DNA of 12,053 nt. Source: a virus. Lineage: Duplodnaviria; Heunggongvirae; Uroviricota; Caudoviricetes. Below are positions 1,591-2,210 of this stretch, one piece after another (the first letter of the stretch is position 1; each line of letters opens with the position of its first letter). The notes beneath the pieces were generated by a model. It was given only the letters and a program-made list of their open reading frames with translations. It made no database searches and was not told where the DNA came from. The translations under genes were made by a program, and so were the position numbers. The DNA lies in IMG/VR virus record IMGVR_UViG_2850808358_000011, one strand, 5' to 3'.

Positions 1591-1620
1591 AAAAAAAGAA
1601 GCTCGCTAAAGATAGCGAGC
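1591..1620 (-). terminator. Intrinsic terminator on the minus strand (hairpin GCTCGCTA-aaga-TAGCGAGC followed by a T-run when read on the minus strand)
   Basis: 8-bp perfect stem at 1601-1620; plus-strand A-run 1591-1600 becomes TTCTTTTTTT immediately 3' of the hairpin on the minus strand. Confidence 0.4.
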
Positions 1621-1682
1621 CAACCAGTCAAGGATGCGCATTTAGTGCACCTGAAACCAACAATAAGAAACAATAGGCAGAA

Positions 1683-2210
1683 ATGATTATGGCTTTTTTA
1701 CTCTTTAAAATCAATCACTCAGCGCAAGTGAGCAAAAATAATTTGCAATATTGCTTGACTCGCTTTTTTGTCATGGCGTATCGTTTGCCCGCACCTCATA
1801 AAGCGGGTGCCGGGTTTAGCAGCCTGAACAATCAAGCGGGTAGCCGCTATATTTCCGTAATGCGGTTTTTTTGTGCCCGTAATTCCACCCTACCCCGTAT
1901 TATGGCGGGGCGTAATGGGGGAGCCTTTGCGCTCGCTGGTTCCTTGATTGCCAGTCTGCTAACCCTGTTACGTCCCGCCACCATGTTTAGCAGCGTGCTG
2001 GCGAGACTCCGTAAACTTAATCAAGGAGCCGCCAAAATGGCTATATCAACACGCCCTGATTTTATCTGGCGCTTTATGCAGTGCCACGGTAAAAATATTC
2101 GCCTTCATACCGTTACCGCTGCCAGTGAGCGCGAAGCGCGCGCCATGCTTCCGGCATCCCGTCTGGTCTTTGTTGCCCGTATCCGTGTCCGGGAGGCGTG
2201 CCATGTTTAA
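1683..2210 (+). CDS. Hypothetical protein, start uncertain; C-terminal part resembles short Icd-like/P4-type island proteins from memory only
   Basis: ORF track 1683..2210; stop TAA 2208-2210 overlaps the next ATG (2203). No convincing RBS at 1683 or at internal ATGs (1773, 1860, 1902); the candidate promoter at 1755-1784 would start transcription downstream of 1683. Confidence 0.4.
   Translation: MIMAFLLFKINHSAQVSKNNLQYCLTRFFVMAYRLPAPHKAGAGFSSLNNQAGSRYISVMRFFCARNSTLPRIMAGRNGGAFALAGSLIASLLTLLRPATMFSSVLARLRKLNQGAAKMAISTRPDFIWRFMQCHGKNIRLHTVTAASEREARAMLPASRLVFVARIRVREACHV
1755..1784 (+). promoter_or_regulatory. Candidate sigma70 promoter TTGACT-N18-TATCGT for the small-gene operon
   Basis: Read directly; strong -35 hexamer, moderate -10. 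No experimental support. Confidence 0.25.

Follow-up and report, generated by a model that had tools for sequence, protein, structure and literature searches.

The DNA analysed here, referred to as the window, is a 12,053-nucleotide stretch of a virus of the Caudoviricetes (IMG/VR record IMGVR_UViG_2850808358_000011). A sequence-only reading of it had raised the question of what lies around positions 1591-1900, where a minus-strand intrinsic terminator serves no evident gene, an open reading frame (1683-2210) with a doubtful 5' end carries a promoter inside it, and a 10-mer, GTTTAGCAGC, occurs twice. A small RNA or leader region had been suggested, with the P4 immunity RNA as a speculative analogue. 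In our reading, positions 1755-2210 are very probably (probability about 0.87) the immunity region of a P4-like satellite prophage with P4-type layout. The region consists of a promoter, a leader RNA, a C4/CI antisense RNA and two nested genes under RNA control, and its informative features reach beyond the flagged 1591-1900, to about 2210. The features referred to below are:

1169-1489, plus strand: alpA/vis-like gene, 106 aa (Pfam Phage_AlpA PF05930; PHROG 2790, excisionase and transcriptional regulator; P4 synteny)
1590-1621, minus strand: orphan intrinsic-terminator-like hairpin (stem 1621-1600, U-run 1599-1590)
1683-2210, plus strand: long ORF, 175 aa, counterpart of P4 eta (frame openness, P4 comparison)
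1686-1714, minus strand: leftward sigma-70-like promoter candidate (-35 TTGATT 1714-1709, 17-nt spacer, -10 CATAAT 1691-1686)
1745-1754, no strand assigned: 10-bp palindrome GCAATATTGC, abutting the -35 hexamer of the next feature and nearly invariant in relatives
1755-1784, plus strand: PLE-like promoter TTGACT-18-TATCGT, predicted start near 1791
1791-1872, plus strand: isrK / P4-seqA-type leader RNA (Rfam RF01394)
1898-1985, plus strand: C4/CI-type antisense RNA (Rfam RF01695, full-length model 1-87)
1985-2028, plus strand: downstream target region with boxes b2 and a2, equivalent of P4 seqC
2037-2210, plus strand: Icd/Kil-like gene, 57 aa (NCBIfam NF033153)
2203-2385, plus strand: next ORF, 60 aa, its start overlapping the icd-like stop (ATGTTTAA), with its own GGGAGG

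RNA genes and their target boxes

The suspected small RNA or leader region was found as two Rfam matches above their gathering scores, isrK at 1791-1872 (RF01394, 52.1 bits against 50, a marginal pass) and C4 at 1898-1985 (RF01695, 74.7 bits against 45). Both RNAs are on the plus strand and unrelated to the minus-strand terminator, the feature that the sequence-only reading had put first. In sequence, the leader has the RF01394 layout, with a promoter site at its start, an intrinsic terminator at its end and the C4 model 26 nt later. The terminator is weak (1843-1872; a hairpin of 6 pairs with a 14-nt loop, then U7). Upstream of it, box b1 (1814-1823, core 1816-1822) lies in a hairpin loop and is followed by box a1 (1829-1836). 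The c4-a1b1 model RF03163 stayed below its gathering score (29.5 against 46.7 bits), and both boxes and their pairing are present despite this.

The promoter-like site at 1755-1784, of constitutive type, would start transcription near 1791, downstream of the ATG at 1683, as had been noted. It was called a promoter on three grounds and not on enrichment, since such sites are no more frequent in the window than expected (19 found, 18.3 expected): its hexamers align with those of the P7 immI promoter, its layout is the one read in the P4 sequence upstream of P4's own isrK match, and it ends just ahead of position 1 of the isrK model. By comparison with P4, a promoter within the long ORF is the expected PLE-like arrangement and not an anomaly. 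The palindrome GCAATATTGC at 1745-1754 is a candidate operator.

The C4/CI RNA is cloverleaf-like, with a long closing stem around two hairpins, and exposes a' (loop, 1941-1950) and b' (1956-1962). Sequence signals resembling those for RNase P excision to a ~77-nt RNA are present: an acceptor-like stem and, after it, ACCA at 1980-1983. By homology to the annotated P7 c4 misc_RNA, the mature C4 RNA is predicted to span 1904-1982 (~79 nt). The immunity type of the window is given by a' = UCCUUGAUUG and b' = CUGCUAA.

The repeated 10-mer GTTTAGCAGC, exact at 1814-1823 and 1985-1994 as reported, is the target pair b1/b2 (b2 core 1987-1993). The partly complementary CTGCTAA seen between the copies is the b' loop, although it stands at 1956-1962 and not at 1952. 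Besides b1/b'/b2, a second triad, a1/a'/a2, was found, in which a2 (2019-2027) overlaps AAGGAG (2023-2028), the Shine-Dalgarno sequence of the Icd/Kil-like gene (ATG 2037). As in RF01695, a'/b' are complementary to both a1/b1 and a2/b2, and a2 lies over a ribosome-binding site. The proposed parallel with a P4 immunity RNA that pairs with flanking repeats is thereby supported at the sequence level: P4 matches the same models and the b1/b'/b2 triad is there.

A covariance and structure comparison across homologous islands had been proposed as one of the checks, and was carried out on relatives gathered from E. coli records, IMG/VR and metagenome pattern scans; all matches were close relatives. 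Carrier strains include E. coli ETEC6333 (NZ_CP122600), with 99.9-100% identity over 1490-2250, and NCTC9082. An AlpA protein search of genome contigs returned a single locus only and added no diversity. The allele series comes from one island family, whose members are ~95% identical, plus P1/P7. Within the C4 structure, compensatory changes on both sides were seen at 10 of the 28 predicted pairs (13 sequences). Both triads covaried, and between 99 and 100% of cells were paired. For a1b1 against a'b' the figure was 98.8%, with 8 pairs changed on both sides; for a'b' against b2a2 it was 100%, with 8/17 pairs changed on both sides. None of 500 shuffles was as good in either comparison, and alignments slid out of register as controls gave 26-55% paired. 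The cognate duplex was the most stable for the upstream target in 13/13 rows and for the downstream target in 12/13. Altogether, 24 modules fell into 11 allele combinations, drawn from eight types of a and two of b. Hypervariable though they are, the a and b boxes always remain mutually complementary, which defines heteroimmune types. Such a rich and clean allele series, with matched changes at three sites, is a good natural data set, useful for how RNA-based immunity specificities diversify among satellites.

Nested reading frames and identity of the region

In a single frame, the long ORF runs through the promoter, the leader and the C4 RNA and includes the nested short gene. As the sequence-only reading had it, a convincing ribosome-binding site is lacking, with only a weak AGG (1675-1677) before ATG 1683. 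The doubt that it had cast on the 5' end holds as far as this weak site goes; the start is not simply wrong, as the ORF is the counterpart of P4 eta/kil. The 57-aa product of the short gene scored 56 bits with NF033153 (cut-off 25) over residues 9-51. Within the long ORF this Icd-like domain corresponds to residues 127-169, i.e. to the last 50 codons only. The ATG at 2037 and its Shine-Dalgarno sequence align with the icd start of P7, and by homology the Icd/Kil-like gene would be translated first on the PLE-like transcript and targeted directly by C4.

Upstream of the short gene, the in-frame extension runs for 120 codons without a stop; the two alternative frames contain 7 and 10. The long frame is open in 17/17 relatives and in only 0.4% of shuffles; the open codons number 152 in P4 and only 11-14 in P1 and P7. 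Upstream of 2037, synonymous to non-synonymous changes stood at 0:22 and 10:84; in the icd part the count was 10:11. The frame is thus kept open in the island family and in P4 and not in P1/P7, with no constraint on the peptide that it encodes. The 5' two-thirds of the ORF had also been considered as a pure annotation artefact, an explanation dropped after the frame-openness test and the comparison with P4 eta/kil. The P4 eta and kil nested pair is summarised in PMC10111431, and P4 CI, seqA and seqC in PMC4825925. As in P4, the eta-like ORF of the window starts upstream of the promoter and has the kil-like gene in the same frame. The ATGA coupling of eta to alpA was not found: alpA stops at 1487-1489 and the long ORF begins at ATG 1683, a 193-nt gap.

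Two other identities of the region were weighed. An ordinary gene for a 175-aa Icd-like protein, with functionless RNA-family matches, would agree with the PGAP labels (173-175-aa Icd-like proteins in all homologues) and with the open frame. Such a gene is very improbable and, as the sole explanation, already contradicted: the domain is limited to residues 127-169, the synonymous to non-synonymous counts differ between the part upstream of 2037 (0:22, 10:84) and the icd part (10:11), the triple covariation tracks RNA pairing and not codons, and the ORF encloses a promoter, a terminator and a structured RNA. P4's own over-long ORF, the historical 'cI protein', likewise contains the CI RNA. Since ORF 1683-2210 is the nested counterpart of eta/kil, the RNA model would still stand if the 175-aa protein were detected. 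It is also improbable that the module is a P1/P7-type immI operon controlling an antirepressor, and not a P4-type control of replication genes. The highest DNA similarity is indeed to P1/P7, and the b' box is identical. An immI operon has ant1/ant2 after c4-icd and a C1 operator; in the window, Pfam and PHROG searches of the downstream ORFs returned no ant or kilA homologue, and no C1 operator was found anywhere within 3 mismatches. Moreover, the eta-like ORF is shared with P4 and absent in P1/P7, and the alpA-to-primase synteny is that of P4.

The evidence on identity thus favours the P4-type immunity region. The P4 immunity region itself scores 74.9 bits for C4 (CI RNA) and 60.8 bits for isrK, and since it matches the same two Rfam models, the P4 likeness of 1755-2210 is homology and not analogy. 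The gene order of the window (alpA, promoter, RNAs, icd/kil-like gene, primase; Pfam, PHROG and comparison with P4) is that of P4, with alpA/vis upstream, an Icd/Kil-like first gene and the primase operon downstream. In sequence, the RNA is closest to the P1/P7 c4 region, though the immunity region as a whole is constructed as in P4. This type of system is already well known; the window holds a further P4-type immunity region with its own allele, and the current understanding of how the system works is unchanged.

The ORF at 2203-2385 is the first of three small ORFs (spanning 2203-2791) ahead of the primase genes; it and its neighbouring small ORFs had no family match in Pfam and PHROG searches. 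The primase gene is frameshifted in the window's copy, so the element may be decaying. As a side observation, the alpA/vis-like gene lies upstream of the immunity region as orf88/vis does in P4.

What the findings change is the annotation. In 7/7 close homologues examined, RefSeq labels the locus only as a 173-175-aa "Icd-like protein", without RNA genes, although a promoter, two RNA genes and a pair of nested genes lie there. Historically, the P4 "cI protein" was the same annotation error.

The minus-strand terminator and possible leftward transcription

The terminator that had been placed at 1591-1620 is present, with a stem at 1621-1600 (9 pairs, 5 G-C, loop 4) and a tail, TCTTTTTTTG, to 1590. 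It is among the four strongest of 32 such sites in the window (shuffles give 12.4). Across 19 distinct relatives the stem does not vary and the length of the run does (6-9 bases); all relatives are so closely akin that they carry almost no covariation information for minus-strand hairpins. The terminator was found only in the window's island family, and the flanking block is fully covered in 57/5426 E. coli genomes. No match to the block 1540-1760 was found in phage genomes, nor any homology (tblastn, blastn) between region 1490-1800 and the leftward genes of other P4-like islands. An Rfam search of 1400-2300 at permissive thresholds matched the minus-strand element only to terminator look-alikes at chance level (suhB, Trp leader; E 0.08-0.5). 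The terminator is real and conserved, lies outside the plus-strand RNA module and is only partly explained.

That no convincing minus-strand ORF ends there was confirmed by the run-length polymorphism and by the lack of a coding signature in the one candidate, a TTG-started 28-codon frame (1714-1628; hydrophobic, stop 7 nt before the stem). This frame was rejected as a gene: its variable sites number 4, 8 and 3 at codon positions 1, 2 and 3, and in a sister lineage (L011) it is truncated and not kept. Two further ORFs, 1482-1676 (plus) and 1551-1673 (minus), were ruled out by A-run and G-run length polymorphism. Since the length of the A/T-run is polymorphic among relatives, nothing is read across the terminator on either strand.

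The terminator probably ends a putative short leftward transcript from the promoter-like site at 1714-1686, with a predicted start near 1679. The evidence for this promoter is ambiguous, since its -10 is also the reverse complement of ATGATTATG, the start codons of the long ORF. At this place, the sister lineage has unrelated sequence with the same promoter-plus-terminator layout.

Whether such a transcript would have a function was considered in two ways. One explanation, to which we give not quite even odds, is that the terminator is an insulator or a relic and that no functional RNA is made. As an insulator, it would stop stray leftward transcription from the A+T-rich promoter region before this ran antisense into alpA; as a relic, it would be left over from a lost leftward gene. 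Related P4-like islands do have leftward protein genes in the interval from alpA to the immunity region, the window has none there with a coding signature, and the element is confined to one island family. The invariance of the stem across 19 distinct sequences argues against this explanation, and the sister lineage has a non-homologous equivalent, which points to selection for termination here; such selection fits insulation and not a mere relic.

The other explanation, a rather unlikely one, is a ~90-nt minus-strand RNA (about 1679 to 1590), cis-antisense to the leader and Shine-Dalgarno sequence of the eta-like ORF, that would block its translation on alpA read-through. It would account for a canonical and conserved terminator and for the TTGATT-17-CATAAT hexamers, which, together with their spacing, are kept in capsid-carrying variants while the spacer sequence diverges. 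These variants are unrelated in the transcribed part and still have, at much the same distance, a minus-strand G+C hairpin and TTTTCTTTT. Folding gave a z-score of -2.8, and in another P4-like family the same place is taken by a leftward gene that has a minus-strand terminator of its own. Against the RNA stand the promoter-like sites, no commoner than chance in the window, and the conserved -10, equally explained by the long ORF's ATGATTATG start. Close relatives differ in the 5' single-stranded part (6 changes in one of them, L009), the hairpin of L011 was seen by eye and folding only, with no call by the terminator scanner, and no Rfam family matched. That this putative RNA forms a second RNA layer of P4-type immunity is more doubtful still. 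If it did, the layer would keep alpA read-through transcripts from being translated through and overriding the C4 system, and the RNA would replace the vis-eta translational coupling of P4.

Proposed mechanism and comparison with known systems

Under the P4-type reading, the steps from transcription start through RNase P processing to repression, Rho dependence included, are taken over by homology from P4, P1/P7 and Gifsy-1. Most transcripts from the PLE-like promoter would stop at the leader terminator or be cut, and RNase P would free a stable ~79-nt C4 RNA with ACCA at its 3' end. C4 would then pair with b2/a2 and block translation of the icd/kil-like gene, and the untranslated transcript would be terminated (by Rho in P4), leaving the small ORFs and the primase operon silent. 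Prophage maintenance and type-specific immunity would follow from the silent operon. The a1/b1 leader, which would pair with the same C4 loops, may be a cis partner or a decoy. The eta-like long ORF would be translatable only from transcripts begun upstream, on the alpA side, and ribosomes crossing the leader, C4 and the targets would override immunity.

P4 and the window match the same two Rfam models and share the order of vis/alpA, promoter, leader with b1/a1 and terminator, CI/C4, b2/a2 over the Shine-Dalgarno sequence, Icd-like Kil and primase, as well as the nested long and short ORFs in one frame with a C-terminal Icd-like domain only. They differ in their a and b boxes and in the genes between kil and primase, which are unrelated, and RNA sequence similarity to P4 was undetected by blastn, the window being closer to P1/P7. 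The leader terminator of P4 is a perfect GACGCG hairpin, whereas that of the window is weaker (6 pairs, 14-nt loop). P4 eta starts in an ATGA overlap with vis/alpA (8767-8764), whereas the eta-like ORF follows alpA by 193 nt in the window.

Between b1 and b2 (window 1810-1995, a stretch that takes in the annotated P7 c4), the DNA is 79-81% identical to P1/P7 immI. The two also have the same fold, an identical b', the same a/b target logic with a2 over the icd Shine-Dalgarno sequence, and an aligned icd start. Unlike P1/P7, the window lacks ant, the C1 operator and P51a-type control, and it has the long eta-like ORF that they lack. Its a' specificity differs from that of P1 and from that of P7.

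In Salmonella Gifsy-1 (isrK-orf45-anrP; IsrK sRNA; STnc1160), the isrK model scores 79.3 bits and the C4 model matches as well, 25 nt after isrK, an order shared with the window; the c4-a1b1 model overlaps isrK there. A short terminated RNA and a read-through form come from one promoter, as predicted for the window, and the conserved AUG at the 5' edge of C4, the start of orf45 in Gifsy-1, is present at window 1902-1904. In Gifsy-1, however, the ORF that overlies C4 runs up to an antirepressor-like gene, with no icd, IsrK activates in trans rather than represses, and the host element is a lambdoid prophage.

Sabbattini et al. in 1996 reportedly described retronphage phiR73 as a heteroimmune P4-like element. 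In heteroimmune P4-like elements (e.g. phiR73) and between P1 and P7, the immunity type is set by a few antisense-loop bases and matching target changes, as in the window. With 8 a-types and 2 b-types in several combinations, the window's family together with P1/P7 forms a wider series than the classical heteroimmune pairs and follows the same principle.

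C4-type RNA and its covarying targets

The immunity region of the window (1755-2210) is a real, well-supported C4 immunity module of the P4/P1 type. The whole window was scanned against Rfam using the curated gathering scores as thresholds (isrK 50, C4 45), and two matches exceeded them, both on the plus strand; a match to the c4-a1b1 model at 1778-1830 stayed below threshold. The 10-mer GTTTAGCAGC noted in the sequence-only reading occurs in two exact copies (1814-1823 and 1985-1994), and the partly complementary CTGCTAA placed between them at about 1952 is present, at 1956-1962. 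Judged by position and complementarity, the two copies are b1 and b2, the targets upstream and downstream of the C4 RNA, and CTGCTAA is b', the segment within it; a second triad was assigned in the same way.

RNA matches and second target triad of the immunity region
1791-1872, plus strand: isrK, Rfam match, 52.1 bits (gathering score 50)
1829-1836: a1, CAATCAAG, by position and complementarity
1898-1985, plus strand: C4 antisense RNA, Rfam match, 74.7 bits (gathering score 45)
1941-1950: a', UCCUUGAUUG, by position and complementarity
2019-2027: a2, AATCAAGGA, by position and complementarity

The immI regions of P1 and P7 were 79-81% identical to window 1810-1995, a segment annotated in the P7 record as c4 antisense RNA and then icd. 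In the pairwise alignment with P7, promoter hexamers, leader hairpins, the terminator-like hairpin with its U-run and C4 all line up, and ATG 2037 aligns with the start codon of icd. Ends transferred from the annotated P7 c4 via this alignment predict a mature C4 RNA at 1904-1982, followed by ACCA, which is typical of RNase P substrates. Compensatory change was found in 10 of the 28 pairs of the C4 fold, and a2 overlaps the Shine-Dalgarno sequence AAGGAG (2023-2028), whose end lies 8 nt before ATG 2037. The sigma-70-like site TTGACT-18-TATCGT was located at 1755-1784, as claimed; promoter-like sites are not enriched in the window (19 observed, 18.3 expected), so support for a promoter must rest on comparison with other elements.

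The window was aligned with seven close relatives (93-95% identical), among which variation was concentrated nearly entirely in the a/b blocks and was compensatory every time. The set was enlarged with IMG/VR loci, metagenome loci and P1/P7 to 24 modules, representing 11 distinct combinations of eight a-types and two b-types. In the alignment of the 11 distinct modules, 98.8% of cells were paired upstream (b1/a1 with b'/a') and 100% downstream (a'/b' with b2/a2), with changes on both sides in 8 pairs of each. None of 500 shuffles was as good as the real pairing for either target, and slid controls reached 26-55%. The cognate partner gave the most stable predicted duplex in 13/13 rows for the upstream target and 12/13 for the downstream one. 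Parts, order and pairing potential with covariation are all present in the window.

The minus-strand terminator and a possible leftward unit

The canonical minus-strand terminator-like hairpin is present as described (stem 1621-1600, U-run reaching 1590) and lies outside the RNA module. Its stem is invariant among relatives, with a run of 6 to 9 bases. The surrounding block (1540-1760) was detected in 66 of 5426 complete E. coli genomes, with at least 80% of it in 57 of the 66, and adjoins the immunity region in every occurrence; it was not found in the phage collection. A possible start for a leftward transcript was identified:

1714-1686, minus strand: leftward promoter-like site, TTGATT-17-CATAAT

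Transcription from this site to the terminator would produce an RNA of about 90 nt, with a fold z-score of -2.8. The sister lineage (L011, L012 and L013, from E. coli STEC367, STEC316 and A36) carries two plus-strand genes inserted between alpA and the immunity region, equivalent to window 1490-1682, one of which bears the annotation P2-family major capsid protein, and homology with the window stops at 1682. There the leftward hexamers and spacing are kept and the spacer sequence is divergent; an unrelated minus-oriented hairpin followed by TTTTCTTTT lies about 70 nt downstream, recognised by eye and folding and uncalled by the scanner. At the same place, a leftward protein gene with a minus terminator of its own is found in another P4-like family. 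An insulating or relic terminator comes a little short of even odds, and a functional cis-antisense RNA is unlikely, because conservation of the -10 hexamer is ambiguous (its reverse complement is ATGATTATG of the long ORF), the putative 5' part varies among close relatives and no RNA family matches.

The conserved block continues about 45 nt past the terminator (1545-1590, GGGGGGAGGAGGCC..., C-rich on the minus strand), even where the relatives' alpA side is unrelated; possible roles are a recombination boundary or a Rho-loading tract. A satellite with its own P2-type capsid gene (L011-L013) deserves a separate look.

Nested genes and other features of the island

The long ORF (1683-2210, plus strand, 175 aa) begins at an ATG preceded by a weak AGG alone, in agreement with the doubt raised about its ribosome-binding site. 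The NCBIfam Icd-like domain is confined to residues 127-169, corresponding to 9-51 of the 57-aa product from ATG 2037. Synonymous and non-synonymous codon differences among relatives numbered 0 and 22 in 1683-1790, 10 and 84 in 1791-2036, and 10 and 11 in the icd part. Given these counts and the promoter, terminator and structured RNA inside the ORF, its 5' two-thirds were initially taken as an annotation artefact. That reading was given up after the frame proved open, as it is in P4. Upstream of ATG 2037 there are 120 open codons in frame, with 7 and 10 stops in the other two frames; the frame is open in 17/17 relatives whatever the a/b allele, and in 0.4% of shuffles. In P4 it is likewise open (152 codons), whereas P1 and P7 do not keep it open (11-14 codons). 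This suggests selection on the act of translation of the long ORF, not on the peptide.

In P4, the PLE transcript is the template for kil translation, and translation of eta, which starts upstream of PLE, uses solely the late upstream transcript and prevents termination (PMC10111431). The P4 record places kil at 8365..8168 (65 aa) and eta at 8767..8168 (199 aa), the latter overlapping the vis homologue at its start (ATGA). By its sequence, the window has an eta-like long ORF with a nested icd/kil-like short gene, matching the nested genes of P4; unlike in P4, the long ORF is uncoupled from alpA by a 193-nt gap. In P4, the old "cI protein" CDS is over-long in the same way and has its Icd-like domain at residues 85-132 only. 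For the seven close homologues examined, RefSeq shows the long "Icd-like" CDS alone and leaves the immunity module unannotated.

A perfect 10-bp palindrome (GCAATATTGC, 1745-1754) lies immediately next to the -35 hexamer of the PLE-like promoter and shares sequence with a second leftward promoter-like site (1774-1747); it could be an operator. A plus-strand terminator-like hairpin with U7 (2830-2851) follows the small-ORF cluster and precedes a 99-aa ORF and the primase, and a strong 11-bp hairpin with a terminator score on both strands (3169-3195) lies just within the N-terminal primase ORF, at its start; one or the other may mark where the C4-controlled unit ends downstream. The primase gene is in two ORFs (3157-3519 and 3579-5876; PHROG 1139 positions 2-101 and 127-891), split by a 1-nt deletion (GTGG-GCCACTGA) around 3511, and six relatives have an intact gene of about 889 aa. 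This means either a pseudogene with a frameshift or an error of sequencing, so the island copy in the window may be defective in replication. Directly after the primase, 5879-6880 encodes a 333-aa tyrosine recombinase (Xer-like / PHROG 1 integrase), in addition to the main integrase of the island, seen upstream in the homologue L001.

Comparison with P4 and Gifsy-1

The P4 analogy, offered as speculation, was tested directly and held: the P4 genome matches both models, C4 at 8420-8507 (74.9 bits, corresponding to CI RNA) and isrK at 8615-8692 (60.8 bits). As in the window, the P4 leader has b1 GTGAGAA in a hairpin loop, then a1 TTCACAGG, then a terminator; CI RNA has the loops CCUGUGAA and UUCUCAC, followed by b2, a2 over AGGAGG, and ATG. 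Synteny is also common to both (vis/alpA, promoter, RNAs, Icd-like gene, primase). CI pairs with seqA and seqC, leading to premature termination (PMC4825925), and equivalence with the P4 system is stated in the literature. By homology, transcription would start near 1791 and partially terminate at 1872, and C4 would be released by RNase P and occlude the icd/kil-like ribosome-binding site, with polarity on the genes that follow. If the eta-like ORF were translated from upstream transcripts, this block would be overridden, and immunity specificity would track the a/b type in general.

In two other P4-like islands (L003, 2613-2700 and 3094-3181; L033, 2111-2198 and 2589-2676), a pair of C4 RNAs is spaced by about 480 nt, with an Icd-like ORF after each RNA; each pair forms a tandem of immunity modules whose loops differ.

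In Gifsy-1 (L015, 34131-34329, minus strand), a C4 match likewise lies 25 nt downstream of isrK, and the c4-a1b1 model overlaps isrK (48 bits). The Gifsy-1 C4 match (69 bits) falls within the region published as orf45/STnc1160, and a conserved AUG on the 5' border of C4 is the published orf45 start; in the window its counterpart is 1902-1904, and RNase P cleavage at the predicted site would cut through it. This kind of system is already well understood, and what is new here is the specificity allele.
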